Below are positions 8,764 to 63,333 of a stretch of 64,000 bases of DNA, piece after piece. The DNA is taken from the sequence record PZ154895.1; one strand, 5' to 3'. How positions within the stretch are numbered: the stretch's first letter is position 1; every line of letters begins with the position of its first letter. Source of the stretch: a phage. A model generated the notes under the pieces. That model was not told the DNA's origin and made no database searches. It saw only the letters and a list, made by a program, of their open reading frames with translations. The translations under genes were made by a program, and so were the position numbers.

Positions 8764-8803
8764 GTTTACATGCTGATGAGGTAGTGATACTATTACCTCA
8801 TCA
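8764..8803 (+). promoter_or_regulatory. early promoter with stem-loop (PeSL-like): GTTTACA-N17-TACTAT inside 10-bp inverted repeat
   Basis: -35 8764-8770, -10 8788-8793; inverted repeat tgatgaggta (8774-8783) / tacctcatca (8794-8803). Confidence 0.6.
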
Positions 8804-8823: not shown

Positions 8824-9081
8824 ATGAAAACTTTCAAAGAGTTTGCTACAAAAACTACTATCACTGAATCTTCACACGGTATGGAAGTAAAGCTTGGAAT
8901 GGCTTTAGCTGAAGCTGAGCGTCTTTTATCTCGTATTAAAGAACTTGCTGCTGCAGTCGATCCTTCATCTTTTAAAGGAGACCAAACTAAAGTTAAAGCA
9001 CTTTTAGCATTATGCTCCGATGCAGGAGAAATTGCTAAAAATGGTTCTAAGATGAAGAAACGATTAGAAGATTTAAAATAA
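8824..9081 (+). CDS. internal protein-like (N-terminal capsid targeting sequence MKTFKEF..ITE)
   Basis: 85 aa; CTS-like N-terminus; paralogous to ORF 17106-17387; early promoter upstream. Confidence 0.55.
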   Translation: MKTFKEFATKTTITESSHGMEVKLGMALAEAERLLSRIKELAAAVDPSSFKGDQTKVKALLALCSDAGEIAKNGSKMKKRLEDLK

Positions 9082-9093
9082 TTTCACAAAGTT

Positions 9094-9129
9094 GTTTACA
9101 GAAGGGTAGTAGTGTGATACTATTACCCT
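9094..9129 (+). promoter_or_regulatory. early promoter (PeSL-like), second copy of the same cassette
   Basis: identical 31 nt to 8740-8770 including -35; -10 gatactat; inverted repeat agggta/taccct. Confidence 0.6.
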
Positions 9130-10125: not shown

Positions 10126-10198
10126 TGGGAATTAGCCAAGTTGGTAAGGCACTGGATTTTGATTCCAGGATGCAAAGGTTCGAGTCCTTTATTCCCAG
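10126..10198 (+). tRNA. tRNA-Gln (anticodon UUG)
   Basis: 7 bp acceptor tgggaat/attccca, anticodon stem ctgga/tccag, loop ttTTGat, T-arm GGTTCGAGTCC. Confidence 0.85.
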
Positions 10199-10199
10199 C

Positions 10200-10286
10200 G
10201 CGAGAATGGTCAAATTGGTAAAGGCACAGCACTTAAAATGCTGCGGAATGATTTCCTTGTGGGTTCGAGTCCCACTTCTCGCACCA
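10200..10286 (+). tRNA. tRNA-Leu (anticodon UAA), long variable arm, encoded CCA
   Basis: acceptor gcgagaa/ttctcgc, anticodon stem cagca/tgctg, loop ctTAAaa, T-arm GGTTCGAGTCC. Confidence 0.85.
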
Positions 10287-10291
10287 AATTT

Positions 10292-10365
<74 letters not shown>

Positions 10366-10369
10366 ATTT

Positions 10370-11020
10370 ATGACTCGTCGTGAGACGCTCAGTTCTTTAT
10401 TAGGGACTGATATGCATTTTTATCTTTATAAAATAACAAATAAAATTAATAATAAAATTTATATTGGTGTGCATTCTACCGAAAATTTAGATGATGGATA
10501 TATGGGTTCTGGTAAATTATTAAAAAGAGCCCAAGACAAGTATGGTATAGAAAATTTTTCTAAAGAAATATTAGAGTATTTTGATGATAAAGAATCTATG
10601 CTTGAAGCCGAGAAAAATATTGTTACAGAAGAGTTTTTAAATAGACCAGATGTGTATAATTTAAAACTTGGCGGTGAAGGTGGATGGGACCACATAAATA
10701 ATTATCCTATGACAGATCAGCAACGCGAATTAATTTCATTGGGTGTTAAAAAGGCACATTCTAACGGAAAATTAAAAGGATGGTCTTCAAATGGATTAAT
10801 GAAGAATGGCTTTGCTGGTAAAACTCATTCTCAAGAAGCTAAACGTAAAATAGCAAAAGCAAACGAAGCAAAAGTTTCTGCGGATGAAAGAAAAAGAAGA
10901 ATAGAAATTTCTAAATTATATGATTTTTCTAAGCGTGGTGAATTATCTAAATATGCTAAGCATATTGGCGTAAGTCATACTCAAGCAAAAAGAATTCTAA
11001 ATCAAATTAACAATATATAA
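10370..11020 (+). CDS. segB: GIY-YIG homing endonuclease (SegB-like) inside the tRNA cluster
   Basis: 216 aa; GIY-YIG motif (FYLYKITN...KIYIGV); embedded between tRNA subclusters as T4 segB is. Confidence 0.8.
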   Translation: MTRRETLSSLLGTDMHFYLYKITNKINNKIYIGVHSTENLDDGYMGSGKLLKRAQDKYGIENFSKEILEYFDDKESMLEAEKNIVTEEFLNRPDVYNLKLGGEGGWDHINNYPMTDQQRELISLGVKKAHSNGKLKGWSSNGLMKNGFAGKTHSQEAKRKIAKANEAKVSADERKRRIEISKLYDFSKRGELSKYAKHIGVSHTQAKRILNQINNI

Positions 11021-11026
11021 ATATTT

Positions 11027-11116
11027 GGAGGCGTGGCAGAGTGGTTTAATGCACCGGTCTTGAAAACCGGCAGTCGCTCCGGCGACTCATAGGTTCAAAT
11101 CCTATCGCCTCCGCCA
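11027..11116 (+). tRNA. tRNA-Ser (anticodon UGA), long variable arm
   Basis: acceptor ggaggcg/cgcctcc, anticodon stem ccggt/accgg, loop ctTGAaa, T-arm GGTTCAAATCC, CCA encoded. Confidence 0.85.
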
Positions 11117-11121
11117 GTTTT

Positions 11122-11197
11122 GCTGATTTAGCTCAGTAGGTAGAGCAACTCACTTGTAATGAGAAGGTCGGCGGTTCGATCCCGTCAATCAGCACCA
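11122..11197 (+). tRNA. tRNA-Thr (anticodon UGU)
   Basis: acceptor gctgatt/aatcagc, D-arm AGCTCAGTAGGTAGAGC, loop ctTGTaa, T-arm GGTTCGATCC. Confidence 0.85.
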
Positions 11198-11198
11198 A

Positions 11199-11273
11199 GG
11201 CCCTGTAGCTGGAAGGTTCAAGCAAGCGACTCATAATCGCCAGATGGTGGTTCAATTCCACCCAGGGCCACCA
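11199..11273 (+). tRNA. tRNA with CAU anticodon (Ile-lysidine type or Met)
   Basis: acceptor ggccctg/cagggcc, loop ctCATaa, T-arm ggtgg-ttcaatt-ccacc. Confidence 0.75.
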
Positions 11274-11282
11274 AATTAATTT

Positions 11283-11369
11283 GGGGAGTTATCCCGTAGA
11301 GGTAGCGGTGTGGACTGTAAATTCATTGTCATTGCGACTCGGGTGGTTCGACTCCATCACTCCCCACCA
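11283..11369 (+). tRNA. tRNA with long variable arm, probable Tyr (anticodon GUA); D-arm non-canonical
   Basis: acceptor ggggagt/actcccc, loop CTGTAAA as in bacterial tRNA-Tyr, T-arm ggtgg-ttcgact-ccatc, CCA encoded. Confidence 0.55.
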
Positions 11370-11373
11370 ATTT

Positions 11374-11448
11374 GGATGTGTAGCTCAATGGCAGAGCGAT
11401 CGCCTGTTAAGCGATTGGTTATAGGTTCGAATCCTATCACGTCCGCCA
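11374..11448 (+). tRNA. tRNA-Asn (anticodon GUU)
   Basis: acceptor ggatgtg/cacgtcc, anticodon stem atcgc/gcgat, loop ctGTTaa, T-arm GGTTCGAATCC. Confidence 0.75.
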
Positions 11449-11452
11449 AATC

Positions 11453-11528
11453 CGAGGCATAGCTCAGAAGGAAGAGCAAGGACCTTCTAAGTCCTAGGTC
11501 GTAGGTTCGATCCCTACTGCCTCGACCA
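11453..11528 (+). tRNA. tRNA-Arg (anticodon UCU)
   Basis: acceptor cgaggca/tgcctcg, D-arm AGCTCAGAAGGAAGAGC, anticodon stem aggac/gtcct, loop ctTCTaa. Confidence 0.85.
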
Positions 11529-12766: not shown

Positions 12767-12793
12767 ACCCCGACCAAAAGGTTGGGGCTTTTT
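12767..12793 (+). terminator. rho-independent terminator (paralog of 12207 hairpin)
   Basis: ccccgacc-aaaa-ggttgggg followed by CTTTTT. Confidence 0.7.
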
Positions 12794-12914
12794 GGTATCT
12801 AGGCCTTTCCGCGCCTCTCTAGGCATCATTTAGTTTATACACTTTATAATATATTATCCTATCCTTTAATTGCCCATCCCTTCCCTAGAATTCCCTAAAA
12901 CTTTTAAAAAAAAA

Positions 12915-12973
12915 TTTTTCACAAAACTGTTTACATCTCTGTTCTTCCGTGGTACTATACAACTATCAACTAC
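12915..12973 (+). repeat. repeated promoter/leader cassette, copy A1
   Basis: about 58 nt near-identical to 56437-56494 (ttcacaaaactgtttacatc...ggtactatacaactatcaact). Confidence 0.75.
12929..12958 (+). promoter_or_regulatory. early promoter GTTTACA-N17-TACTAT
   Basis: A/T-rich upstream element, -35 12929-12935, -10 12953-12958. Confidence 0.6.
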
Positions 12974-13001
12974 TGATACAGAAAACAACTTGGAGAATGA
13001 A

Positions 13002-13265
13002 ATGGATAATTACGGCGAACTGTTCAACTTCTTTATGAAATGTGTTTCAGAAGATTTCGGTCGTACAGTGAATGATATTAAAGTTATCGGTCCTGACCAT
13101 CCGATGTTTGAAACTTACGCAGTAATGGGTAATGAAGACGGTCAGTGGTATACTGTAAAGGTTGTGATTAACATGTTCACAGCAGAAGGTTATGATAAAC
13201 TGTCTTCTAAAGTTTATCATGATAACGACGAAATCGCAGAAGAATATTTCAATAATATGAAATAA
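13002..13265 (+). CDS. hypothetical protein
   Basis: 87 aa from ATG 13002 (SD GGAG); ORF-track N-terminal extension lies in the repeated promoter cassette. Confidence 0.55.
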   Translation: MDNYGELFNFFMKCVSEDFGRTVNDIKVIGPDHPMFETYAVMGNEDGQWYTVKVVINMFTAEGYDKLSSKVYHDNDEIAEEYFNNMK

Positions 13266-13302
13266 GTTTACACAGGCTCATGATTGAGATATTATGAGCC
13301 TG
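13266..13302 (+). promoter_or_regulatory. early promoter with stem-loop (PeSL-like)
   Basis: -35 GTTTACA at 13266-13272, -10 TATTAT at 13290-13295; 9-bp inverted repeat caggctcat/atgagcctg. Confidence 0.6.
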
Positions 13303-13320
13303 TAATTTGAGGAGAACATT

Positions 13321-13656
13321 ATGAAACGTAACTTTAGTAAAGCTTTTTGTAATCGAAATTATTATCCCGAAGAGCTTTTTGAATCTAAGGAATTTAAAGA
13401 GTTTAACGAACGTTCTCAAAACATGCCTGTGCAGTGGGTATTGGATTATGCCAATCGTATCTTTGAAGGCGTGCGGGATATTTGTCCTGATGATGAAGCT
13501 CCTTATTTTAAAAAGGCTTGGGAACTTGCTAACCAAGCATATATCAATGCTTTAGAATTTTCTAAAGGCACTGACGATGATTTTACTTTATTGGCTATCA
13601 ATGATGCCGTTATCGAAGCCATTGACATCTTTATCGATGAGCTAGACGAAGAATAA
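13321..13656 (+). CDS. hypothetical acidic protein
   Basis: 111 aa ORF, SD GAGGAG, early promoter upstream. Confidence 0.55.
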   Translation: MKRNFSKAFCNRNYYPEELFESKEFKEFNERSQNMPVQWVLDYANRIFEGVRDICPDDEAPYFKKAWELANQAYINALEFSKGTDDDFTLLAINDAVIEAIDIFIDELDEE

Positions 13657-13686
13657 GTTTACAATCTATTAGAAACGTGATATTAT
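13657..13686 (+). promoter_or_regulatory. early promoter GTTTACA-N17-TATTAT
   Basis: -35 at 13657-13663, -10 at 13681-13686. Confidence 0.55.
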
Positions 13687-13713
13687 CTAATTATATCAAC
13701 CTAAGGAAATACT

Positions 13714-14307
13714 ATGAACACACTGAAGAAAATTGTTGAGTTTATTCGCACTAAACTTGGTTCTGCTATGGCTAAAAATTTATCTGTTGAAGAACAGTAT
13801 ACTGCTGCAGCAGCAAAACTACTTGATAAAATTAAAGACCTAAAAACTGCTTCTGTTAAATCTATTAATGAAGAAAAACGTATTCGTGAACTTGTTGTTG
13901 AAAAGAATCGACAGGCCGAATCAAAAGAGCGTGAAATTCGTAAACTTCTTTCCGAAGGTCAAGATGTAACAATGCATGCTAAACTTGGTTTACTATATCG
14001 TCGAACAGCTGAGCAGTTGACTACTAAAGCTGACGGTTATGCTGAAATGCGAATTGAAATCGCCAAGAAAGTAGTTGAGTTAGATGATGCTCGCCAAGAA
14101 CTTGCAGTTAAATTGGAATATATCCGTGAAACTCGTGCAGCAAATGCCCTTGGAATTAGTACTGCCGATGATGTAGTTGAAATCGCAGCGCTGACTAAGG
14201 TTGATATTGAAGATACCCTTGCTCGAGTTGAAACCTTTAACGGTAATATTTCCGGGGTTGAAACTACCTCTGCCGATGTCCAGGAATATATTAATTCTCT
14301 GAAATAA
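13714..14307 (+). CDS. coiled-coil protein of unknown function
   Basis: 197 aa, heptad-rich Lys/Glu sequence throughout. Confidence 0.55.
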
Positions 14308-16620: not shown

Positions 16621-17109
16621 ATGAATATATTTGAAATGTTACGTATAGATGAAGGTCTTAGACTGACTTTATACAAAGACACTGAAGGCTTTTGGACGAT
16701 TGGCATAGGCCATTTAGTAACAAAGAACCCGTCTTTAGCCGTAGCTAAAGCTGAACTTGACAGAATGATCGGACGTAAATGCAACGGTACAATTACCCTT
16801 GATGAGGCTGAAAAGCTATTTAATGAAGACGTTGATAAAGCCGTTCGCGGAATCTTGGGTAATGCTAAACTTAAACCGGTATATGATTCTTTAGATGCAG
16901 TTCGTCGATGTGCGTTGGTCAATATGGTCTTCCAAATGGGCGTAGCAGGCGTCGCTGGTTTTACTAATTCTCTTCGTATGCTTCAACAGAAACGTTGGGA
17001 CGAAGCGGCAGTAAATCTAGCCCAATCTAAATGGTATCGTCAGACACCTAATCGCGCGAAACGCGTAATCTCAACATTTAAAACAGGAACTTGGAAAGCG
17101 TATATATGA
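16621..17109 (+). CDS. e: endolysin (T4 lysozyme)
   Basis: 162 aa beginning [15 protein letters not shown]; near-identical to T4 lysozyme as recalled; two late promoters upstream. Confidence 0.97.
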
Positions 17110-17387
17110 AAACATATAGTGAATTTTTATCAGAATCTATTCTTAACGAAGCTACTGACACATTTGCAACTAAGTTAGGTGCAGCTTTGGTTGAAGCCGA
17201 AAGTCTATTAGCACGTATTTCTGAACTTGCTAGTAAGATAGATACTCGCAAATTTGAACGTACCAGCGATATCGTTAAGCTTGAAGCCTTGTTGCGTATG
17301 TGCGATAAACCAGAAGAAATCGCTAAGAACGGCTCGCTAATGAAACAACGTCTTGAAAAATATATTTCAGGCGCTTCAGAAAAATAG
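17106..17387 (+). CDS. internal protein-like ([17 protein letters not shown])
   Basis: 93 aa; paralog of ORF 8824-9081 (shared ..[13 protein letters not shown]..). Confidence 0.55.
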
Positions 17388-17388
17388 T

Positions 17389-17442
17389 GTTTACTTCCTC
17401 CAAGGACTTTGATACTATACATTCATCAACTACTTGGAGGAA
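17389..17442 (+). promoter_or_regulatory. early promoter with stem-loop (PeSL-like) upstream of denV
   Basis: -35 GTTTACT, -10 TACTAT at 17413-17418; 10-bp inverted repeat ttcctccaag (17394-17403) / cttggaggaa (17433-17442) that includes the SD. Confidence 0.6.
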
Positions 17443-17445
17443 GTT

Positions 17446-17862
17446 ATGACTCGTATCAATTTAACACTTGTTTCTGAACTGACCGACCAACATCTTATGG
17501 CTGAGTATCGTGAATTGCCGCGTGTTTTTGGTATAGTTCGTAAACATGCGGCAAATGGTAAGCGGGTTAAAGATTTTAAAATATCTTCCGAGTTTATTTT
17601 AGGCTCTGGTCATGTTACGTTCTTTTACGATAAGTTAGAATTTTTGCGAAAGCGCCAATCAGACATTATAACGGAATGCTTAAAACGTGGGTTTAGTATA
17701 AAAGATACTGAAGTTCCTGACATCAGCGATATTCCAGCAGAATGGAAAAACGATTATAATCCATGCAAATCAGCTATTAAATTGAGTCAACAACGACTCG
17801 ATGAAAAAATTTTAATGAAGCCACACTGGTACAAGTATTACGGCAAAAATATTTACATTTAA
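17446..17862 (+). CDS. denV: endonuclease V (pyrimidine dimer DNA glycosylase)
   Basis: 138 aa beginning [23 protein letters not shown]; matches T4 DenV as recalled. Confidence 0.92.
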
Positions 17863-20493: not shown

Positions 20494-20542
20494 GTTTACT
20501 TTTCCTCTTGACTGTGGTATAATTTTTCTATCAGTTAAGAGG
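20494..20542 (+). promoter_or_regulatory. early promoter upstream of regB (GTTTACT-N17-TATAAT) with flanking imperfect inverted repeat
   Basis: -35 20494-20500, -10 20518-20523; cctctt / aagagg arms. Confidence 0.6.
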
Positions 20543-20550
20543 AGAATAAC

Positions 20551-24280: not shown

Positions 24281-24304
24281 AGTCTCCTTCGGGAGACTTT
24301 TTTC
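24281..24304 (+). terminator. rho-independent terminator
   Basis: agtctcc-TTCG-ggagact followed by T-run. Confidence 0.7.
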
Positions 24305-25123: not shown

Positions 25124-25290
25124 TGGTTTACAAGTTGGCAAGGTTATGGTATAGTAATCTTGTCAACTGCCAAGGAGAAGAGAATGAAAGTTTTGTTTGT
25201 TGTGTATGTGATGATTCAATATAATTACCCGATGTTTACTTATAATCTGGTGAACAACATTATTGATATTATTCAAAGGAGTATGTAATT

Positions 25291-25854: not shown

Positions 25855-26376
25855 ATGTTTATTTCAAGTGAAAGCGGTTTAATTCGTGTTGAATTTAAAA
25901 ATGACATCTTCCTTATTCAAGGAGATGATATTATTAAAATGAGTTATGACGAAATCAAGAAAATTTGTCATGCTCTTGAAAGCCATGGAAAAGTAAATGC
26001 TACTATCGATATAGGTGATTTATGGGTGACACTTTATGAAGTATCCGAAGGATTTAACATTGAAGATGAAAATAACATCTTAGCTATTGATAAAAGAAGT
26101 GATTTGTTTGATGTGTTAAAAGTTTATGAACAGTCAAACGGTGGAAGAAAAGCTGCATTGATTTATCAAAAACCACATTCATGTGGAACTGCTTCAATCA
26201 TTTCAAATATTGAAGATGAAACTGATACTTATATGTGTGTTTTAAAGGCTGGTGGTGACCGTCATCCGGATTTTATTTCTATTCGTCAAAACAATGGAGA
26301 AATTTCATTATCAAAATCAGAAGCTGAAGCTATGATTAAGTATTTAACAACTGTTACACCTTCAATGAAAGGATAA
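25855..26376 (+). CDS. hypothetical protein, paralog B (shared C-terminal motif)
   Basis: 173 aa; C-terminus SEAEAMIKYLTTVTPSM. Confidence 0.5.
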   Translation: MFISSESGLIRVEFKNDIFLIQGDDIIKMSYDEIKKICHALESHGKVNATIDIGDLWVTLYEVSEGFNIEDENNILAIDKRSDLFDVLKVYEQSNGGRKAALIYQKPHSCGTASIISNIEDETDTYMCVLKAGGDRHPDFISIRQNNGEISLSKSEAEAMIKYLTTVTPSMKG

Positions 26377-26378
26377 TT

Positions 26379-26840
26379 ATGATTATTAATGAAAGCTCTT
26401 GGCACTATAAATTATTCAAAATGTTTAATGATGAATGGAAACGACCTAAGACACTGTGCGCGTATTTTTGGTCTATTGTTATTCCTACATTTTTCGTTTC
26501 TTTTTTCGGATGTACTATACTCGCAGGTCTAACTATCATCTGTGCAGAAATCATACAGAAATGGCTTATTTTTGGTAGTTTATGGACTCTTATTCCATCA
26601 GCATTTATACTTGCCATTTTGCTTGTTTTACTTATTATTGGTTCATTTGTTATTCCTGCACAACTGCGTGAAAAATATAAAGATTATAAATGGAAAAAGG
26701 ATTATGCTTTACATGTAGAAAATATTGATAGGGCGTATAAAGGTTTACCTCCTATTCAACCTAAGAAATCTATTATCGTCGAATTTTTAAAAGCGCGTAA
26801 AGCTAAAGTATGTCCTGTTATTGAATATAAGGCTGAATGA
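26379..26840 (+). CDS. membrane protein
   Basis: 153 aa with three hydrophobic helices, basic C-terminal tail. Confidence 0.5.
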   Translation: MIINESSWHYKLFKMFNDEWKRPKTLCAYFWSIVIPTFFVSFFGCTILAGLTIICAEIIQKWLIFGSLWTLIPSAFILAILLVLLIIGSFVIPAQLREKYKDYKWKKDYALHVENIDRAYKGLPPIQPKKSIIVEFLKARKAKVCPVIEYKAE

Positions 26841-27850: not shown

Positions 27851-27852
27851 TA

Positions 27853-27879
27853 GGGAGCCTTCGGGCTCCCTTTTTTTTT
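27853..27879 (+). terminator. rho-independent terminator
   Basis: gggagcc-TTCG-ggctccc followed by nine T. Confidence 0.8.
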
Positions 27880-27902: not shown

Positions 27903-27932
27903 GTTTACTTCTATCGCAAAGCATATTATAAT
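27903..27932 (+). promoter_or_regulatory. early promoter GTTTACT-N17-TATAAT
   Basis: -35 at 27903-27909, -10 at 27927-27932, preceded by tcacaaagtt UP-like element. Confidence 0.55.
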
Positions 27933-27978
27933 ATATGTGTAGTTAATTAATTGCTCTTTAAAAATTGAGGAGAATACA

Positions 27979-28269
27979 ATGCATATTTTAATGCAATGCC
28001 TTGGCAACAAAATTAATGATTTTAATCATAAGCGTGTTAATGATTACATTAAAGACAAACTTGAGATTAAAGACATACTTTTTAGAGGACTTACAATAGA
28101 GGAAGTGCTATCTTATAAGTTTGAAGTTAATAGGAGAATCAAATTTAAAAGAATAACTTCCTTTAGCAGTGAGTCTCATATAGCTGAAACGTTTGCAGCA
28201 GAACGCTATATGACTAATGCTTTAGTAGTGTTAAAAATGCAAACGTTTTCGACTATTCGACTGCTATGA
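27979..28269 (+). CDS. hypothetical protein
   Basis: 96 aa, early promoter upstream. Confidence 0.45.
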   Translation: MHILMQCLGNKINDFNHKRVNDYIKDKLEIKDILFRGLTIEEVLSYKFEVNRRIKFKRITSFSSESHIAETFAAERYMTNALVVLKMQTFSTIRLL

Positions 28270-28463
28270 TTGACATTTTAGAAAATTTAATCGCAATTGA
28301 AGAATCTGGCCAAACTGACGATGATAAGCTTAACAAGCTTTATGATAATCTTTGTATGGTAGATTATGAAAGAGAGTTTTTACTGCCAACTAATTCTGAG
28401 TTAATAGTTAAAAACATATATTTTGATAGCAAAAAGAACATGCATATAGTAGAAATGGAATAA
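28266..28463 (+). CDS. hypothetical acidic protein
   Basis: 65 aa. Confidence 0.45.
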   Translation: MIDILENLIAIEESGQTDDDKLNKLYDNLCMVDYEREFLLPTNSELIVKNIYFDSKKNMHIVEME

Positions 28464-28483
28464 ATCGACACAAAGGGGGCTAT

Positions 28484-28506
28484 GGTACTATACAACTATC
28501 AACTAC
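28484..28506 (+). repeat. 23-nt core GGTACTATACAACTATCAACTAC (partial cassette copy)
   Basis: exact match to cores at 12951-12973 and 29926-29948. Confidence 0.7.
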
Positions 28507-28528
28507 TGATACAGATTTGGAGAATAAA

Positions 28529-29497
28529 ATGAAAACTGTAACTATCAATAAGGGTATCTACTTTGGTAAAGAAATCTCTGGAACTTTTGAGCTCTTAGGC
28601 GAATGGTTCCCAGATAATGCTCCGGTAGATGCACAAGGAGATGGTAAAGTTTTTGTTGAAATTGACGGTAAACGTCGCGGTGTTTGGGTTTACAAATCAG
28701 ATATTTCATATGATGGTGTAAAAGTTGAAGAAGTTAAAGAATCGTATGAAGATATGAAAACCCGCATTAATAAAAGATTTAATGTTATGGGAATGATGAC
28801 GAACGGTATTATTAATGGAAATATTCGTTCATTAATTATCTCTGGCGCAGCAGGTATTGGTAAAACGTATTCTTTAGATAAAGCTTTAAATAAAGCAAAT
28901 GATATTGGATACATTGAATATAAAAGCATTAATGGTAAAATCTCTGGTATTGGTCTTTATGAGCAGCTTTGGAATAATCGTGAAGAGAATTCTGTCCTTT
29001 TGATTGATGATGTGGATGTTTTCTCTGATATGGACATTCTTAATCTTCTAAAAGCTGCTCTGGACACTGGAGAGACCCGTAAAGTCTGCTGGAGCACTGC
29101 GTCTTCTTACTTAGAAGAAAAAGGCATTGACCGTGAGTTTGAATTTAAAGGAACGATTGTTTTTATCACAAACGTTGACATTGACCGCGAATTAGACCGT
29201 GGTACTAAACTTGCTCCACATTTACAAGCATTAGTGTCCCGCTCAGTTTATTTGGATTTGGGTGTTCACACTAATGAAGAAATTATGGTCAGGGTTGAAG
29301 ATGTTATTCTTTCAACTGACATGATGCAAAAGCGTGGTCTTTCTGATGAAGAAACTTATAAAGCATTATCATGGATGAAAGTTAATGTTAATCGTTTACG
29401 CAATGTTTCACTGCGTACTGCTCTTTATCTTGCTGACTTTATTATGACCGACAAAAACGGTTGGGAAGAAATTGCTGAGGTTACTCTTCTGAAATAA
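28529..29497 (+). CDS. AAA+ family ATPase with N-terminal extra domain
   Basis: 322 aa from ATG 28529; Walker A GAAGIGKT, Walker B LLIDDVD. Confidence 0.65.
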   Translation: MKTVTINKGIYFGKEISGTFELLGEWFPDNAPVDAQGDGKVFVEIDGKRRGVWVYKSDISYDGVKVEEVKESYEDMKTRINKRFNVMGMMTNGIINGNIRSLIISGAAGIGKTYSLDKALNKANDIGYIEYKSINGKISGIGLYEQLWNNREENSVLLIDDVDVFSDMDILNLLKAALDTGETRKVCWSTASSYLEEKGIDREFEFKGTIVFITNVDIDRELDRGTKLAPHLQALVSRSVYLDLGVHTNEEIMVRVEDVILSTDMMQKRGLSDEETYKALSWMKVNVNRLRNVSLRTALYLADFIMTDKNGWEEIAEVTLLK

Positions 29498-29901: not shown

Positions 29902-29925
29902 TGGTTTACAAGACTGTTCCTCTGT

Positions 29926-29948
29926 GGTACTATACAACTATCAACTAC
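29926..29948 (+). repeat. 23-nt core GGTACTATACAACTATCAACTAC (partial cassette copy)
   Basis: exact match to cores at 12951-12973 and 28484-28506. Confidence 0.7.
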
Positions 29949-29961
29949 GGAGGAACAGAAA

Positions 29962-37545: not shown

Positions 37546-39359
37546 CAATTGAAAAAGAAATTGAAGGATTGATTCATAAAACTAATAAAGACCTTTTAAA
37601 CGAGAATGCTAATAAAGATTCTCGTGTTTTTCCAACTCAACGGGACCTTATGGCTGGTATTGTGTCTAAACACATTGCCAAAAATATGGTCCCGTCTTTT
37701 ATTATGAAAGCGCATGAAAGCGGAATTATTCATTTCCATGATATTGATTATTCCCCTGCTCTTCCATTTACTAATTGCTGTTTAGTAGATTTAAAAGGAA
37801 TGCTTGAAAACGGATTTAAGCTCGGCAATGCACAGATTGAAACTCCTAAATCAATCGGCGTTGCTACTGCAATTATGGCACAAATTACTGCACAGGTTGC
37901 TTCCCATCAATACGGTGGAACGACTTTTGCGAATGTAGATAAAGTCCTTTCTCCTTATGTTAAACGCACCTATGCAAAACATATTGAGGATGCAGAAAAA
38001 TGGCAAATCGCTGATGCGTTGAATTATGCCCAATCTAAAACAGAAAAAGACGTATACGATGCATTCCAAGCTTATGAATATGAAGTAAATACTCTCTTTA
38101 GTTCAAACGGACAAACGCCTTTTGTAACAATTACATTTGGTACGGGAACTGACTGGACTGAACGAATGATTCAGAAAGCAATTCTGAAAAATCGTATTAA
38201 AGGTCTTGGTCGTGACGGGATAACTCCTATTTTCCCTAAGCTTGTTATGTTCGTTGAAGAGGGTGTTAATCTTTATAAAGACGATCCGAACTATGATATT
38301 AAGCAGCTTGCTTTAGAGTGTGCAAGCAAAAGAATGTATCCTGACATCATTTCGGCTAAGAACAATAAAGCTATCACCGGTTCATCTATTCCTGTTTCTC
38401 CAATGGGTTGTCGTAGTTTCTTGAGTGTATGGAAAGATTCGACTGGTAATGAAATTCTTGATGGACGTAATAATCTTGGTGTTGTAACACTGAATCTTCC
38501 TCGTATTGCATTAGATTCTTATATTGGAACACAGTTCAATGAACAGAAATTTACTGAATTGTTCAATGAGCGAATGGATTTATGTTTTGAAGCATTGATG
38601 TGTAGAATTAGTTCCTTAAAAGGAGTTAAAGCGACTGTTGCTCCTATTCTTTACCAAGAAGGTGCATTCGGGGTTCGTCTTAAACCTGATGACGATATAA
38701 TTGAGTTATTTAAAAACGGTAGAAGTTCAGTGTCCCTAGGATACATCGGTATTCACGAATTGAATATTCTTGTCGGTCGTGATATTGGACAGGAAATTTT
38801 AACTAAAATGAATGCTCGTCTTAAGCAGTGGACTGAAAGAACTGGTTTTGCTTTTAGCTTGTATTCTACTCCTGCTGAAAACCTGTGCTATCGCTTCTGT
38901 AAACTTGATACCGAAAAATATGGAAGTGTAAAGGATGTTACTGATAAAGGCTGGTACACCAACAGTTTCCACGTTTCAGTAGAAGAAAATATTACTCCGT
39001 TTGAAAAGATTTCTCGAGAAGCCCCATATCATTTCATTGCGACAGGTGGTCACATTTCTTATGTTGAACTTCCTGATATGAAAAATAACCTAAAAGGTCT
39101 TGAGGCTGTATGGGATTATGCTGCACAACATTTAGATTATTTTGGTGTTAACATGCCGGTAGATAAATGTTTTACGTGTGGAAGTACCCATGAAATGACT
39201 CCTACTGAAAACGGATTTGTTTGTTCTATTTGTGGAGAAACTGATCCTAAAAAGATGAACACAATAAGAAGAACTTGTGGCTATTTGGGAAATCCGAATG
39301 AACGCGGATTTAATCTTGGCAAAAATAAAGAAATCATGCATAGGGTTAAACACCAATGA
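37542..39359 (+). CDS. nrdD: anaerobic ribonucleoside-triphosphate reductase NrdD, uninterrupted
   Basis: 605 aa; C-terminal glycyl radical region RRTCGYLG and Cys cluster CFTCGS...CSICG. Confidence 0.95.
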   Translation: MTIEKEIEGLIHKTNKDLLNENANKDSRVFPTQRDLMAGIVSKHIAKNMVPSFIMKAHESGIIHFHDIDYSPALPFTNCCLVDLKGMLENGFKLGNAQIETPKSIGVATAIMAQITAQVASHQYGGTTFANVDKVLSPYVKRTYAKHIEDAEKWQIADALNYAQSKTEKDVYDAFQAYEYEVNTLFSSNGQTPFVTITFGTGTDWTERMIQKAILKNRIKGLGRDGITPIFPKLVMFVEEGVNLYKDDPNYDIKQLALECASKRMYPDIISAKNNKAITGSSIPVSPMGCRSFLSVWKDSTGNEILDGRNNLGVVTLNLPRIALDSYIGTQFNEQKFTELFNERMDLCFEALMCRISSLKGVKATVAPILYQEGAFGVRLKPDDDIIELFKNGRSSVSLGYIGIHELNILVGRDIGQEILTKMNARLKQWTERTGFAFSLYSTPAENLCYRFCKLDTEKYGSVKDVTDKGWYTNSFHVSVEENITPFEKISREAPYHFIATGGHISYVELPDMKNNLKGLEAVWDYAAQHLDYFGVNMPVDKCFTCGSTHEMTPTENGFVCSICGETDPKKMNTIRRTCGYLGNPNERGFNLGKNKEIMHRVKHQ

Positions 39360-44141: not shown

Positions 44142-44165
44142 AAACCAAAACAATGAGGATATTAA

Positions 44166-45368
44166 ATGAAAGTATGCATTTTTATGGCTCGAGGTCTTGA
44201 AGGTTGTGGCGTAACTAAATTTTCTCTTGAGCAACGTGATTGGTTTATTAAAAATGGTCATGAAGTAACTTTGGTTTATGCTAAAGATAAATCATTTACT
44301 CGTAATTGCGCACATGATTATAAGTCATTTTCAATTCCGGTTTTATTGGCAAAAGAATACGATAAAACACTTAAGTTGGTAAATGATTGTGATATTCTAA
44401 TTATCAATTCAGTTCCTGCTACTTCAGTAGAAGAAGACACTATTAATAACTATAAAAAAATTATTGATAACATTAAACCTTCAGTTCGTGTTGTAGTTTA
44501 TCAGCATGACCATTCTTCTCTTTCTTTGCGCCGAAATTTGGGATTAGAAGAAACTGTTCGTCGAGCTGATGTTATTTTTAGTCATTCTGATAATGGTGAT
44601 TTTAATAAAGTTCTGATGAAAGAATGGTATCCGGAAACTGTTTCTCTGTTTGATGATATTGAAGAAGCACCGACCGTATATAACTTTCAGCCTCCTATGG
44701 ATATTGCGAAGGTTCGATCAACTTACTGGAAAGATGTTTCTGAAATTAACATGAATATCAACCGTTGGATTGGTCGTACTACTACATGGAAAGGCTTTTA
44801 TCAGATGTTTGATTTTCACGAAAAACATCTTAAACCTGCAGGACTAAGTACTATTATGGAAGGTCTGGAACGTTCTCCAGCGTTCATTCCTATTAAAGAA
44901 AAAGGAATTCCATACGAGTATTATCGTCTTCATCAAGTAGACCAAATTAAAATTGCTCCTAATTTGCCAACGCAAATTCTCGACCGTTATGTAAATAGCG
45001 AAATGCTTGAACGCATGAGTAAATCCGGATTTGGTTATCAGCTGAGTAAATTAGATAAAAAATATCTACAACGTTCTTTAGAATATACTCATCTCGAGCT
45101 TGGTGCATGCGGAACAATTCCAGTATTTTGGAAATCTACTGGCGAAAATTTAAAATTCCGTGTTGATAATACTCCGTTAATTTCTCATGATAGCGGTATC
45201 GTTTGGTTTGATGAAAATGACATGGAATCAACATTTGAGCGTATTAAAGAACTGTCATCTGACCGAGCTCTTTATGACCGTGAACGCGAAAAAGCTTATG
45301 AATTTTTGTATCAGCATCAAGATTCAAGCTTCTGCTTTAAAGAACAGTTTGACATTATTACAAAATAA
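44166..45368 (+). CDS. a-gt: DNA alpha-glucosyltransferase
   Basis: 400 aa beginning MKVCIFMARGLEGCGVTKFSLEQRDWFIKNGHEV; matches T4 AGT as recalled; MotA-box promoter upstream. Confidence 0.95.
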   Translation: MKVCIFMARGLEGCGVTKFSLEQRDWFIKNGHEVTLVYAKDKSFTRNCAHDYKSFSIPVLLAKEYDKTLKLVNDCDILIINSVPATSVEEDTINNYKKIIDNIKPSVRVVVYQHDHSSLSLRRNLGLEETVRRADVIFSHSDNGDFNKVLMKEWYPETVSLFDDIEEAPTVYNFQPPMDIAKVRSTYWKDVSEINMNINRWIGRTTTWKGFYQMFDFHEKHLKPAGLSTIMEGLERSPAFIPIKEKGIPYEYYRLHQVDQIKIAPNLPTQILDRYVNSEMLERMSKSGFGYQLSKLDKKYLQRSLEYTHLELGACGTIPVFWKSTGENLKFRVDNTPLISHDSGIVWFDENDMESTFERIKELSSDRALYDREREKAYEFLYQHQDSSFCFKEQFDIITK

Positions 45369-46168: not shown

Positions 46169-47165
46169 TTGGCATTTAGGCGTTAAAGCTGATGATGAAT
46201 GGATTCGCGGTATTCAAATTGATGGAATTAAGCAAGCGATAGAATATTCTAAGAAAAATGGAATTACTGTATGGATTCAATACGGTGATATTTTTGATGT
46301 ACGAAAAGCGATCACGCATAAAACTATGGAGTTTGCCCGTGAAATAGTTCAAATGCTTGATGCCGCTGGAATCACATTACATACTATTGTAGGAAATCAC
46401 GATCTCCACTATAAAAATGTAATGCATCCAAATGCTTCTACTGAGCTTTTGGCTAAATATCCTAATGTTAAAGTATATGATAAGCCTACTACAGTAGATT
46501 TTGACGGATGTTTGATTGATTTAATTCCTTGGATGTGTGAAGAAAATACCGGTGAAATTCTTGAACACATCAAAACTTCATCTGCTTCTTTTTGTGTCGG
46601 TCACTGGGAGCTGAATGGATTTTATTTTTATAAAGGAATGAAATCTCACGGTCTTGAACCTGATTTCCTTAAGACTTATAAAGAGGTGTGGTCTGGTCAC
46701 TTCCATACTATCTCTGAGGCTGCTAACGTCAGATATATTGGGACACCATGGACACTAACTGCAGGTGACGAGAATGACCCTCGTGGGTTCTGGGTGTTTG
46801 ATACAGAAACAGAACGAATGGAATTTATTCCAAACAACACTACCTGGCATCGTCGAATTCAATATCCATTTAAGGGAAAAATTGACTATAAAGATTTTAC
46901 AAATCTATCAGTGCGTGTTATAGTAACTGAAGTAGACAAAAATCTAACGAAGTTCGAATCTGAACTAGAAAAAGTTGTGCATTCATTACGAGTTGTGTCA
47001 AAGATTGATAACTCTGTCGAGTCAGATGATAGTGAAGAAGTTGAAGTTCAATCTCTTCAGACATTGATGGAAGAATACATTAATGCAATTCCAGACATCA
47101 CTGATTCTGACCGTGAAGCACTTATTCAATATGCAAATCAGTTATATGTAGAGGCAACACAATGA
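46146..47165 (+). CDS. 47: recombination endonuclease subunit gp47 (Mre11-like)
   Basis: 339 aa; phosphoesterase motifs (GDWHLG, GNHD). Confidence 0.9.
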   Translation: MKILNLGDWHLGVKADDEWIRGIQIDGIKQAIEYSKKNGITVWIQYGDIFDVRKAITHKTMEFAREIVQMLDAAGITLHTIVGNHDLHYKNVMHPNASTELLAKYPNVKVYDKPTTVDFDGCLIDLIPWMCEENTGEILEHIKTSSASFCVGHWELNGFYFYKGMKSHGLEPDFLKTYKEVWSGHFHTISEAANVRYIGTPWTLTAGDENDPRGFWVFDTETERMEFIPNNTTWHRRIQYPFKGKIDYKDFTNLSVRVIVTEVDKNLTKFESELEKVVHSLRVVSKIDNSVESDDSEEVEVQSLQTLMEEYINAIPDITDSDREALIQYANQLYVEATQ

Positions 47166-56436: not shown

Positions 56437-56494
56437 TTTTTTCACAAAACTGTTTACATCCCCGTTCTTCCATGGTACTATACAACTATCAACT
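56437..56494 (+). repeat. repeated promoter/leader cassette, copy A2
   Basis: near-identical to 12915-12973; spurious upstream ORF extensions translate to the same peptide FFTKLFTS.FF.GTIQLST. Confidence 0.75.
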
Positions 56495-56515: not shown

Positions 56516-56752
56516 ATGAAAATTGTTTATGGTTGTTTAGCAGTGTGTTTAGTTGCATTAGCAACTGTTCCATTTATTGATATTGAAAATGACACTCAGA
56601 ATGTGATTGAATCTAATACTATTATTCACATGAATGGTAAAGTATCAACAAAAATTGATGATAATCTTCATATGAATACTAATGGAACGTTGGGTGTTCA
56701 ATTAGGTAATACCTGTGTAAGCACTACTGGAGTAATTACTACTTGTATTTGA
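56516..56752 (+). CDS. small secreted protein
   Basis: 78 aa from ATG 56516; N-terminal signal peptide; preceded by repeated promoter cassette. Confidence 0.5.
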   Translation: MKIVYGCLAVCLVALATVPFIDIENDTQNVIESNTIIHMNGKVSTKIDDNLHMNTNGTLGVQLGNTCVSTTGVITTCI

Positions 56753-56762
56753 GGAAATTATT

Positions 56763-57143
56763 ATGAAAATCGCTATTTTGGTTATTGCATTAGGTCTTAC
56801 TGGCTGTGTAGCTCAAGGACCAGTAGTAAATCAGTCTGATGTAGGAAAAATTGTAAACTGTTCAAGCAAATTTTATAATCCTAACGTCAAGTGTTATAAA
56901 GAAGCTCCAAAACAGACAGTAGAACAAATGCAGGCGAATTTTGACGAAGCTATTCGTCCAGATGAATCTGCTCAAGCATATCGTAATTCAGATGTGATTA
57001 CACGTGAAGAAAAAATTGAAAACTACTGTGCTGAACTTTGGGCAAATTGGGCTAATAATTACCAATGGCGTACCGGTAAAAATGCTCCGATGGAGTATGT
57101 AGTAAATTCTTATAATTCATGCGTAAAAAATTTGACTAAGTGA
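56763..57143 (+). CDS. lipoprotein
   Basis: 126 aa; lipobox LTGC after hydrophobic signal. Confidence 0.55.
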   Translation: MKIAILVIALGLTGCVAQGPVVNQSDVGKIVNCSSKFYNPNVKCYKEAPKQTVEQMQANFDEAIRPDESAQAYRNSDVITREEKIENYCAELWANWANNYQWRTGKNAPMEYVVNSYNSCVKNLTK

Positions 57144-60740: not shown

Positions 60741-62168
60741 GTGGTAGAAATTATTCTTTCTCATCTCATATTTGATCAAGCTTATTTTTCAAAAGTTTGG
60801 CCATATATGGATTCAGAATATTTTGAAAGTGGTCCAGCTAAAAATACATTCAAATTAATTAAATCTCATGTTAATGAATACCATAGCGTTCCATCTATTA
60901 ATGCGTTAAATGTTGCATTAGAAAATAGTTCATTTACTGAAACAGAATATTCTGGTGTAAAAACACTTATTTCAAAACTGGCCGATTCTCCGGAAGACCA
61001 TAGCTGGTTAGTAAAAGAAACAGAAAAATATATTCAGCAAAGGGCGATGTTTAACGCCACATCTAAAATAATTGAAATTCAAACTAATGCTGAGCTTCCT
61101 CCGGAAAAACGAAATAAGAAAATGCCAGATGTAGGTGCTATTCCTGACATCATGCGCCAAGCATTATCAATTTCATTTGATAGCTACGTTGGTCATGATT
61201 GGATGGATGACTACGAAGCACGTTGGCTATCTTATATGAATAAAGCTCGTAAGGTTCCATTTAAACTCAAAATTCTAAATAAAATTACTAAAGGCGGAGC
61301 TGAGACTGGAACACTGAACGTTTTAATGGCTGGTGTTAACGTTGGTAAGTCATTAGGATTGTGTTCATTGGCAGCAGATTATTTGCAGCTCGGACACAAT
61401 GTTCTTTACATTTCCATGGAAATGGCAGAAGAAGTCTGCGCTAAGCGTATTGACGCTAACATGCTCGATGTTTCTCTTGATGACATTGATGATGGGCATA
61501 TTTCTTACGCTGAATATAAAGGAAAAATGGAAAAATGGCGTGAGAAATCTACTCTTGGACGTTTAATCGTTAAACAGTATCCTACTGGTGGAGCAGACGC
61601 TAATACATTTCGGTCGCTTTTAAATGAATTAAAGCTCAAGAAGAATTTTGTTCCAACAATCATTATTGTTGACTATCTGGGTATTTGTAAATCTTGCCGC
61701 ATTAGAGTTTATTCAGAAAATAGTTACACAACTGTTAAAGCCATCGCAGAAGAATTGCGTGCTCTGGCTGTTGAAACCGAAACTGTTCTTTGGACTGCAG
61801 CACAGGTTGGTAAGCAAGCTTGGGATTCTTCTGATGTTAACATGAGCGATATTGCAGAATCTGCCGGTCTTCCAGCAACAGCCGATTTTATGCTTGCGGT
61901 CATTGAAACCGAGGAGTTAGCAGCTGCTGAACAACAACTCATTAAGCAAATCAAATCACGATACGGTGATAAGAATAAATGGAATAAGTTTTTGATGGGT
62001 GTTCAAAAAGGAAATCAGAAATGGGTAGAAATTGAACAAGATTCTACTCCAACTGAAGTGAACGAAGTAGCAGGTTCACAGCAGATTCAGGCTGAACAGA
62101 ATCGCTATCAAAGAAACGAATCCGCTCGAGCTCAGTTAGATGCTTTGGCAAATGAATTAAAATTTTAG
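60741..62168 (+). CDS. 41: replicative DNA helicase gp41
   Basis: 475 aa, GTG start, beginning MVEIILSHLIFDQAYFSKVWPYMD; Walker A GVNVGKS; matches T4 gp41 as recalled. Confidence 0.95.
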   Translation: MVEIILSHLIFDQAYFSKVWPYMDSEYFESGPAKNTFKLIKSHVNEYHSVPSINALNVALENSSFTETEYSGVKTLISKLADSPEDHSWLVKETEKYIQQRAMFNATSKIIEIQTNAELPPEKRNKKMPDVGAIPDIMRQALSISFDSYVGHDWMDDYEARWLSYMNKARKVPFKLKILNKITKGGAETGTLNVLMAGVNVGKSLGLCSLAADYLQLGHNVLYISMEMAEEVCAKRIDANMLDVSLDDIDDGHISYAEYKGKMEKWREKSTLGRLIVKQYPTGGADANTFRSLLNELKLKKNFVPTIIIVDYLGICKSCRIRVYSENSYTTVKAIAEELRALAVETETVLWTAAQVGKQAWDSSDVNMSDIAESAGLPATADFMLAVIETEELAAAEQQLIKQIKSRYGDKNKWNKFLMGVQKGNQKWVEIEQDSTPTEVNEVAGSQQIQAEQNRYQRNESARAQLDALANELKF

Positions 62169-62207
62169 TTTACAAGCCGACAAGACTATGGTATAGTAGT
62201 CTTGTTG
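62169..62207 (+). promoter_or_regulatory. early promoter with stem-loop (PeSL-like) upstream of dmd
   Basis: -35 GTTTACA, -10 TATAGT at 62193-62198; inverted repeat acaagact/agtcttgt. Confidence 0.55.
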
Positions 62208-62226
62208 GTTAAATGAGGAGATTTTT

Positions 62227-62670: not shown

Positions 62671-62713
62671 GTTTACAAGCTGATAGAGTTGTGTTATAGT
62701 AATTCTATCAGCT
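62671..62713 (+). promoter_or_regulatory. early promoter with stem-loop (PeSL-like)
   Basis: -35 GTTTACA at 62671-62677, -10 TATAGT at 62695-62700; 10-bp inverted repeat agctgataga/tctatcagct. Confidence 0.55.
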
Positions 62714-62731
62714 AATCGCGGAGAAAAGAAA

Positions 62732-62986
62732 ATGATGCTAGTTAATAGAGAATATCAGTTTAAATCAGAAGAAGATTTGGAAAAATTCGCGAGTGGTTGT
62801 GAACTGAATAGACGCACAGCTAAAGTCATAGGATTAAAACCCTTTACAGTTCTAGATTGTGAAGTTTCTAAATTCCGCAGAGGGTGTTCTATTAGCAGTC
62901 ATGCTCTGGTTGATGGGAACACATTTTTCTTTGTTTTTAGCGTCAGAGAACTTTTATTGATTAACGAACTTGAGGAAATAAAATAG
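62732..62986 (+). CDS. hypothetical protein
   Basis: 84 aa; early promoter upstream. Confidence 0.45.
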   Translation: MMLVNREYQFKSEEDLEKFASGCELNRRTAKVIGLKPFTVLDCEVSKFRRGCSISSHALVDGNTFFFVFSVRELLLINELEEIK

Positions 62987-63050
62987 TTTACTTTTGTTTT
63001 AAACATGTTATTATAGACCTATCAAAACAAACGAGTAAATGGAGAATAAA

Positions 63051-63230
63051 ATGTCTAAAGTATCAGGTTATCAATTATTAACACAAGAACAACGTTCAGA
63101 GATGGATTCTTTACAAGAACGGTGTCAGCATAGAAATAACGCACTTGATTCATTTTTATTAATTGAATATGAAAACTTGTGCTCTAGACTTGAAAAAGAA
63201 TATGTTCATCAACATGGAGGAGAAGAATGA
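63051..63230 (+). CDS. hypothetical small protein
   Basis: 59 aa from ATG 63051 with SD GGAG. Confidence 0.4.
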   Translation: MSKVSGYQLLTQEQRSEMDSLQERCQHRNNALDSFLLIEYENLCSRLEKEYVHQHGGEE

Positions 63231-63333
63231 AACTGAAATCACCAATTATTGTAATTTGTCTGTTTGCTTCTACTAGTGTTTACTTTTGTTGAAAATTGAG
63301 ATACTATAAACATAAACTACTGAGGAGATTATC

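Follow-up and report, generated by a model that had tools for sequence, protein, structure and literature searches.

Inverted repeats around the -10 element of T-even early promoters are stem-loops of PeSL-type cassettes and probably pair in sense-strand RNA

The early promoter at position 13266 lies between the homologues of genes e.8 and e.7 in a T4-like phage (Tequatrovirus; sequence record PZ154895.1), and its -10 box is bracketed by the two arms of an inverted repeat. We analysed it as part of a stretch of 64,000 nucleotides, referred to here as the window, that is ~95% identical to T4. Aligned to T4 (AF158101), the window runs from approximately 83 kb down to 19.7 kb of the T4 genome and spans gp6, gene 1, ipI, the tRNAs, e, denV, regB, tk, nrdC, 55, 43, 41 and 61.x, with the sense strand of the T4 early genes corresponding to the plus strand of the window. 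Regions 12800-13800 and 1-25000 show ~95-96% identity to hundreds of T-even genomes. The element itself (13266-13303) consists of GTTTAC, the 5' arm, a TGAGAT loop and the 3' arm, in that order, and is set between the two genes as follows:

12870-13265: ORF of the e.8 homologue, upstream of the 13266 promoter
13266-13271, plus strand: -35 element GTTTAC of the early promoter before the e.7 homologue, directly 3' of the TAA of the e.8 homologue
13272-13284, plus strand: 5' arm ACAGGCTCATGAT, within the promoter spacer; fold of -20 kcal/mol, z = -8.5
13285-13290, plus strand: loop of the stem, 6 nt, TGAGAT
13290-13295, plus strand: -10 box TATTAT, the first base of which closes the loop while the remaining five begin the 3' arm
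13291-13303, plus strand: 3' arm ATTATGAGCCTGT, with the predicted start at ~13302, at the end of the arm; the arm shows covariation
13309-13323, plus strand: Shine-Dalgarno GAGGAG and ATG (13321) of the e.7 homologue, outside the stem

Because the predicted start coincides with the end of the 3' arm, the promoter's own transcript should be unable to form the stem. In RNA reading through from upstream, the Shine-Dalgarno of the e.7 homologue is free of the stem, with an unpaired probability of 0.88.

The first-pass annotation had reported inverted repeats of 6-10 bp at seven named early promoters. The same arrangement is present at 7 of the 7 sites, but the arms are longer than reported, at 9-12 bp when only Watson-Crick pairs are counted and 12-15 bp when G·U pairs are included. 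As a promoter set we took every plus-strand GTTTAC-N17/18-TAnnnT site in the window, of which there are 20 as against one on the minus strand; the exact form GTTTAC-N16-18-TATAAT has five matches where 0.05 are expected. With the spacer and downstream sequence permuted as the control, Watson-Crick stems of 8 bp or more around the -10 element occur at 7/20 promoters, whereas 500 shuffles average 0.33 such promoters and never exceed 3. When G·U pairs are allowed, stems of at least 12 bp are found at 9/20 promoters whereas the shuffles predict ~0.06, a frequency well above that of composition-matched sequence (per-site probability of 0.003 in shuffles and 0.003-0.009 at random real positions). 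When the helix was free to lie anywhere from -70 to +60, the best one was centred no more than 5.5 nt from the middle of the -10 in 10/20 promoters. Folding energies of the stems range from -17 to -22 kcal/mol and their fold z-scores from -5.5 to -8.7. Beyond the window, hairpins are present at 15/35 promoter sites in T4 (1-150 kb) and at 6/10 sites in the Mosigvirus PhAPEC2 (0.28 expected). A generic promoter-only pattern retrieved 120 loci from IMG/VR, many of them from unrelated phages, and among 97 non-redundant promoter-pattern matches in that collection 22 score at least 8 (5.2 expected) and 8 score at least 10 (0.53 expected). The stems bracketing the -10 element are thus confirmed as real and far above chance.

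Elements of this kind have been described before. Arbiol et al. 2010 defined promoter-early stem-loops (PeSLs) in phages RB49 and phi1 as units composed of an AT-rich region, a sigma-70-like promoter, a stem-loop, a Shine-Dalgarno and a start codon, with the stem-loop mostly between -35 and -10 or over the -10 and with G-T pairs drawn in the stems (PMC2839356). PeSLs cluster in hyperplastic regions; they mediate indels and also form mini-circles (PMC2839356). Comeau et al. 2014 widened the class to the T4/PST pair, with the consensus TTTACW-N17-TAYWAT (PMC4122927). All of the sequence-defined PeSL features are present in the window: early sigma-70-type promoters of the T4/PST consensus, a stable stem-loop inside or overlapping the promoter (9-10 stems of 12-15 bp), an intergenic succession of stop codon, AT-rich region, promoter, Shine-Dalgarno and start codon, and a tie to indels and gene replacements between close relatives, seen here at the breaks relative to T4. 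The window elements are therefore PeSL cassettes, and the feature is an already known one of which they provide a further T-even example. PeSL-like elements at the T-even IP loci go back, according to the Arbiol discussion, to Repoila 1994 (PMC2839356), and these loci are exactly the 8764/9094 and 17389 sites described here. Neither Hinton nor Uzan & Miller mention early-promoter stems in their T4 reviews. In these two reviews, Arbiol 2010 and Comeau 2014 we also found no statement of several properties reported below, namely the statistical excess of sense-strand G·U, the division into Shine-Dalgarno-free and Shine-Dalgarno-sequestering classes, the lack of a U-tract and the nearly exclusive relation to canonical upstream terminators. 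Along with the element at 13266, the window contains the following PeSLs:

8764-8803, plus strand: PeSL before the ipI-position cassette; arms 8774-8785 and 8792-8803, short loop
9094-9129, plus strand: PeSL before the trna.4 homologue; arms 9103-9113 and 9119-9129
17389-17444, plus strand: denV PeSL, long-loop; ACTTCCTCCAAG (17393-17404) pairs with CTTGGAGGAAGT (17433-17444)
20494-20546, plus strand: regB PeSL, long-loop; arms 20500-20514 and 20532-20546, with the Shine-Dalgarno in the 3' arm and two G·U pairs
25126-25168, plus strand: PeSL missed by the first-pass annotation; arms 25133-25146 and 25155-25168
29904-29958, plus strand: long-loop PeSL missed by the first-pass annotation; 3' arm 29944-29958 with Shine-Dalgarno GGAGG
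62168-62210, plus strand: dmd-position PeSL directly 3' of the gene 41 stop; arms 62175-62188 and 62197-62210
62671-62713, plus strand: PeSL with arms 62678-62690 and 62701-62713; its GTTTAC is the left edge of an insertion
62986-63031, plus strand: weaker, A/T-rich PeSL missed by the first-pass annotation; TTTGTTTT (62993-63000) with AAAACAAA (63024-63031)

The promoters at 12929, 13657, 24314, 27903, 32887, 40862, 56452 and 63278 rightly have no hairpin call. The PeSLs at 8764 and 9094 have in common a 31-bp exact direct repeat that comprises the UP element and the -35. The promoters at 12929, 29904 and 56452 form a subfamily with exact repeats of 22-25 bp in common (TTTTTCACAAAACTGTTTAC, TGGTACTATACAACTATCAACT), and these repeats probably account for the several places per record that match region 12800-13800.

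The stems fall into two geometries that differ in their relation to the Shine-Dalgarno. In the short-loop class (8764, 9094, 13266, 25126, 62168 and 62671), stems of ~13-15 bp and -17 to -22 kcal/mol stand directly 3' of the upstream stop codon, have loops of 4-10 nt built from the 5' half of the -10 element, and end 18-24 nt before the ATG. Their Shine-Dalgarno is unpaired with a probability of 0.67-0.88 in read-through RNA, compared with 0.37-0.72 in the short transcript. In the long-loop class (denV 17389, regB 20494 and 29904), the promoter spacer pairs with the Shine-Dalgarno itself across a loop of 15-28 nt, such that the unpaired probability is 0.00 in read-through RNA as opposed to 0.27-0.42 in the promoter's own transcript. 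This sequestering geometry is absent at 13266, 8764, 9094, 25126 and 62671. The distance from the predicted start to the Shine-Dalgarno and ATG is 19-25 nt. At denV, the Shine-Dalgarno does lie within the downstream arm CTTGGAGGAAGT (17433-17444), as the first-pass annotation had proposed, and the ATG follows at 17446. Pairing of spacer and Shine-Dalgarno is kept at denV across two arm families and at regB with different sequences in different phages: TTTTCCTCTTGACTG/CAGTTAAGAGGAGAA in T4 and the window, ATCTCCTGTAG/CTACAGGAGAT in JS98 and TTCTCCTCTAGTTG/CAACTAGAGGAGAA in PhAPEC2. RNA structure is known to block cleavage of GGAG by RegB (PMC3014915); for denV, Durand 2006 ascribed resistance to RegB to sequence context and not to structure. 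At the long-loop promoters only 1-2 nt separate the upstream stop codon from the -35, so a terminating ribosome should open the 5' arm, which would make translational coupling, as opposed to absolute repression, a possible outcome.

For either geometry to matter in RNA, both arms must be transcribed, and the arrangement of genes around the promoters makes this likely. At 10/10 hairpin promoters a co-oriented upstream ORF stops -1 to 12 nt before the -35, and no canonical terminator was found within 150-200 nt upstream of the ten. A read-through RNA should therefore hold both arms. A further early promoter often stands 300-800 nt upstream, as 12929 does before 13266 and 8764 before 9094, and the hairpin promoters 62168, 62671 and 62986 are arranged in series. 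Transcripts from the embedded promoters, by contrast, are predicted to start ~7 nt past the -10, inside the 3' arm, and it is they alone that lack the 5' arm. The first-pass annotation had considered the upstream arm to be untranscribed; this is right for each element's own promoter but does not hold for read-through from the co-oriented gene upstream.

Given their position immediately after genes, the stems might simply be factor-independent terminators, as PeSLs were first described, and nothing more. They share with Rho-independent terminators the form of a stable stem-loop right after a gene, and one RB49 PeSL stem cut lacZ expression as strongly as rrnB T1 (PMC2839356); the stem in this assay, the sole terminator assay of a PeSL, is GC-rich. 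The window stems differ from Rho-independent terminators in being AT-richer, in having loops of up to 28 nt and in lacking a 3' U-tract, with 0-3 T in the 8 nt that follow the stem. Intrinsic termination by E. coli polymerase is poor at stems that lack a U-tract. The 8-nt tails of genuine terminators in the window contain 6-8 T, and the textbook examples have, besides such a tail, a GC stem with a UUCG or GAAA loop. A terminator consensus scan, which finds the true terminators of the window, calls none of the -10-bracketing stems (hairpins in 7-27 kb); a laxer scan flagged one only, the 13266 stem (13275-13300), and that as borderline. On the basis of the consensus scan and the tail counts we reject an identity of the stems with intrinsic terminators. 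A plain terminator also leaves aside the tie between long-loop arms and the Shine-Dalgarno, and T4 delayed-early transcription relies on read-through of such junctions (PMC2988021). A literature search for T4 3'-end or Term-seq data returned nothing usable. In all, we regard termination and nothing more as a rather unlikely account of the stems.

The relation of the stems to canonical terminators is nonetheless informative. In the window, a canonical terminator is present at 0/10 hairpin promoters and at 3/7 of the others. When sites from the window, T4, JS98 and PhAPEC2 are pooled, one promoter has both, 36 have the hairpin only, 11 the terminator only and 25 neither (Fisher p=0.0014), a value that is optimistic because orthologous sites were counted and are not independent; within single genomes p ranges from 0.05 to 1. 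Hairpins and canonical upstream terminators are thus almost mutually exclusive. The choice follows intergenic geometry: where the gap between stop codon and -35 is 37-117 nt there is a classical terminator, and where the genes abut there is a stem formed from the spacer and start region, in which all the free nucleotides of the promoter lie. The promoters at 13657 and 32887 are exceptions in that they adjoin the upstream gene yet have no strong stem. Taken together, the exclusivity and the geometry suggest that the stem handles the upstream RNA, as an attenuator, a pause site or a 3' barrier. Intercistronic stem-loops of the REP/malE-malF type shield upstream mRNA from 3' exonucleases. The window stems resemble these in lying between the cistrons of a polycistronic RNA without a terminator tail, but differ in not being repeated-sequence elements. 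Among the individual terminators, AGTCTCC-TTCG-GGAGACT followed by a T-run (24281-24298) lies just 5' of the 24314 -35, and AGGGAGCC-TTCG-GGCTCCCT followed by T8 (27852-27871) just 5' of the 27903 -35; neither of these promoters has a -10-bracketing stem. Further terminator/promoter pairs are located near 12768/12929, 40769/40862 and 56347/56452.

The elements also coincide with sites of gene exchange. Relative to T4, synteny breaks at 8858/9076, 17410, 27908, 56523 and 62676/63277, coinciding with promoter elements. Between the PeSLs at 8764 and 9094, the ORF at the ipI position is replaced by an unrelated one of 85 aa (8824-9081), and one 98-aa ORF (17091-17387) takes the place of the 1.1 kb of T4 ipIII and ipII, the break falling within the denV spacer. 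A 573-nt insertion (27909-28481) begins right after a GTTTAC, at 27908, and a 240-nt ORF is inserted at the Shine-Dalgarno/ATG of the PeSL at 56452. Two whole cassettes make up a 600-nt insertion relative to T4 (62677-63277) that lies exactly between two GTTTAC elements. As to the contents of these insertions, the one at promoter 27903 adds an ORF that starts at 27979 and is at least 96 aa long; downstream of this ORF a degraded PeSL, ACACAAAGGGGGCTATGGTACTATACAACTATCAACT at 28465-28530, has kept its -10, start region and Shine-Dalgarno and lost its GTTTAC. The insert at 56516-56763 has a 78-aa ORF with a hydrophobic N-terminus and separates the PeSL at 56452 from the homologue of the gene after T4 promoter 27080, which is left with a Shine-Dalgarno (GAGGAAATTATTATG) only and no promoter of its own. 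In the cassettes at 62677-63277, each of the two small ORFs (84 aa at 62732 and 59 aa at 63051) has a promoter to itself.

A comparison of window region 13100-13500 with 568 phage records carrying e.8 locates the junctions more finely. Homology stops at the first base of GTTTAC (T2, Shfl2), at the Shine-Dalgarno (RB32 and others) or at the ATG (ime09, JS98), and is unbroken in 159/568 records. An apparent further class of breaks at the end of the -10 was discarded, as on inspection it consisted of T2-type promoters aligned by chance similarity. After e.8, T2 (L153), SH7 (L160) and L152 have a different promoter, TTGTGTAC ... TATTAT (locus about 566-620), with a small stem, ACACC-AAGGAC-GGTGT, wholly in the spacer, which is one of the PeSL stem positions described by Arbiol. 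Such junctions might indicate that the palindrome is itself a recombination signal, recognized or cleaved by a structure-specific nuclease or a hypothetical PeSL recombinase that drives shuffling, and binding of a recombination protein to the stem was raised as a speculation in Arbiol 2010 (PMC2839356). The breakpoints relative to T4 and across the 568 records do fall at these elements, but homology ends at the GTTTAC start, the Shine-Dalgarno or the ATG, outside the arms. Likewise, the sequence that neighbouring PeSLs repeat exactly lies in the UP/-35 region (up to 31 bp) and in the -10 and start region (22-25 bp), not in the arms, which are unique to each site. Furthermore, the stems are kept by compensatory change (see below), which a sequence-specific site would not tolerate, and short homology suffices for T4 recombination (PMC2839356). 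We therefore consider it quite unlikely that the palindrome serves as the signal. With breakpoints and repeats located at the conserved motifs and not in the arms, any DNA-level role belongs to the promoter and translation motifs. The recombination option raised by the first-pass annotation accordingly stands for the -35, Shine-Dalgarno and ATG but not for the arms.

What remains is the question of which nucleic acid does the pairing. Using a helix finder that penalizes G·T and A·C equally, we found a G·T:A·C ratio of 12:1 in the strong helices of the window and 16:3 in those of T4. Some of the G·T pairs derive from the promoter consensus itself (GTG...TAT); at positions outside the consensus the ratio in the window is 8:0. 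Pooled over the free positions of non-redundant sites (n=136) it is 18:4, with a null G·T fraction of 0.46 and p=7e-4. JS98 and PhAPEC2 contribute 2:3, for an overall total of about 20:7, and IMG/VR by itself gives 7:4, which is not significant, so that the G·T excess comes mostly from the window and T4. The plus-strand fold is 3.6-11 kcal/mol stabler than the minus-strand fold in 8/9 stems, reaching -19.0 compared with -7.6 kcal/mol at 25126. Equal symmetry on both strands, as expected of a cruciform, is thus not observed: there is a G·T excess and the minus-strand folds are weaker. A sense-strand (non-template) single-stranded DNA hairpin would produce the same G·T asymmetry.

Substitutions in the stems also follow the pairing. 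Two G·U pairs of the 25126 stem are A-U in T4, with one IMG/VR contig representing an intermediate haplotype, and between the 62168 stem and T4 20612 one pair has changed from G-C to G·U and another from U·G to C-G. Tequatrovirus, Dhakavirus and Mosigvirus all keep the 13266 stem, including cases in which another gene follows it, with U-A/C-G/U·G and A-U/G-C exchanges across the three genera. In an alignment of seven sequences, 96.7% of cells are paired as against 27-46% with the partner slid, and the covariation of 0.150 versus 0.081 was matched in 1/500 shuffles. We regard the covariation in these seven sequences as supportive of RNA pairing, not decisive. Anchored IMG/VR scans for orthologues of single PeSLs yielded 4 and 7 useful contigs, too few for covariation at the population level. 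The arms differ from site to site within the window, which argues against a shared protein-binding palindrome, and we rejected that candidate. PhAPEC2 (Mosigvirus) is different in this respect from the window with its site-specific arms, as several of its PeSLs have nearly identical ones, GATAGGACTA-TGTTATAG-TAGTCCTATC (rc positions 46777, 39228, 37933 and 27648); in this phage the palindrome takes in the -10 variant TATAGT itself.

These observations bear on the idea that the repeats act as DNA. According to this view, negative supercoiling would extrude the repeat as a cruciform, leaving a pre-melted -10 in a single-stranded loop and thereby modulating initiation or the shut-off of early promoters. 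The loops of the short-loop class, formed by the 5' half of the -10, are suggestive in this regard, as are the -10 variants TACTAT and TATAGT, which lengthen the palindrome, and the mechanism of early-promoter shut-off is described as unresolved (PMC3014915). Extrusion requires both strands to fold, however, and the minus-strand stems are the weaker by the margin given above, in keeping with the preponderance of G·T over A·C. In addition, the loops of the long-loop members are unfavourable for extrusion, their pairing with the Shine-Dalgarno has meaning in RNA only, and the exclusivity with RNA terminators is left unexplained. A cruciform is in our view very unlikely, and from the sequence comparisons pairing in the sense-strand RNA is most likely favoured over DNA structure. 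The first-pass annotation's preference for action at the DNA level over an RNA hairpin is thus reversed by the coverage of both arms in read-through, the G·T excess and the covariation. That the stems have no function and are a by-product of the part-palindromic consensus (TGaTA...TATCA) or of cassette copy-and-paste is extremely improbable: although the consensus does have a short built-in inverted repeat and whole PeSLs are copied between loci (T4 denV, JS98 denV and JS98 regB share arms), a 5- to 20-fold enrichment persists in shuffles with the consensus positions fixed, pairs at free positions covary, and the stem is present in about half of the promoters, as predicted by intergenic geometry.

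We therefore favour the view that the inverted repeats are the halves of PeSL-type stem-loops and that their pairing has probably been selected in the sense-strand RNA. Enrichment, geometry, strand asymmetry, covariation, the missing U-tract, the exclusivity with terminators and the breakpoints are read from the sequences, whereas all functional consequences of the stems are what we infer from them. Each cassette is ordered as upstream stop, AT-rich UP region, GTTTAC -35, spacer, -10, start, Shine-Dalgarno and ATG. Polymerases arriving from an upstream early or middle promoter would cross this packed junction and transcribe both arms, while transcripts of the embedded promoter would begin inside the 3' arm and be unable to fold, so that the stem would mark and affect upstream-initiated RNA only. 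Short-loop stems may hold the niche that is occupied by GC-tetraloop/T-run terminators at promoters with longer intergenic gaps, possibly punctuating the read-through RNA as an attenuator, a pause site or a 3'-exonuclease barrier. At the long-loop sites, read-through RNA is predicted to be translationally closed, with its GGAG hidden from RegB, unless a terminating ribosome opens the stem. Separately from these RNA roles, the conserved promoter, Shine-Dalgarno and ATG motifs may serve as patches of DNA homology for cassette exchange in which the arms are not involved.

The long-loop class has a parallel in the T4 genes e, soc, 49 and I-TevI, in which a promoter lies inside a hairpin and only the short transcripts are translated (PMC3014915). 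At denV, regB and 29904, as in those genes, the 5' strand of the helix that includes the Shine-Dalgarno lies upstream of an internal start, and the closed long transcripts and open promoter-proximal transcripts of e, soc, 49 and I-TevI resemble what is predicted for the long-loop class. The T4 examples combine a late (gp55) internal promoter with an early long RNA, whereas the window promoters are of the sigma-70 early type, GTTTAC/TAnnnT. A further difference is that the stop codon at denV, regB and 29904 is 1-2 nt from the -35, so terminating ribosomes may reopen the stem. One tentative possibility is that the stems constitute a distinct class of "promoter-of-origin" RNA switches without a U-tract, built into early cassettes: since the start site lies inside the stem, a promoter's own RNA would be treated differently from read-through RNA. 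If this is correct, translation of regB, denV and the gene at 29904, together with access of RegB to their Shine-Dalgarno, would be limited to RNA that is self-initiated or read through with ribosome coupling; the short-loop stem would replace a terminator where genes abut; and the principle of e, soc, 49 and I-TevI, a handful of cases with late promoters, would become a general design rule for shufflable early-gene cassettes. The stems bear in any case on how immediate-early and read-through ("delayed-early") expression are kept apart in T4. T-even promoters with a stem-loop are the portable cassettes behind modular gene shuffling in hyperplastic regions, and for annotation the sites flag early transcription units, the boundaries of cassettes and the junctions at which recombination is likely.

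Other differences from T4 are found elsewhere in the window. Judging by gaps in the T4 alignment at about 2486, 25873-26836, 38077-38080 and 44150-44175, several T4 mobile elements are missing or different, namely segC, mobD, the nrdD intron with I-TevII, and mobB. In an Rfam scan of the window, 8 tRNAs alone passed the gathering score, with no match for the hairpins. These eight tRNA genes form a cluster at 10126-11525 that is broken by sequence unlike the T4 tRNA/segB region.
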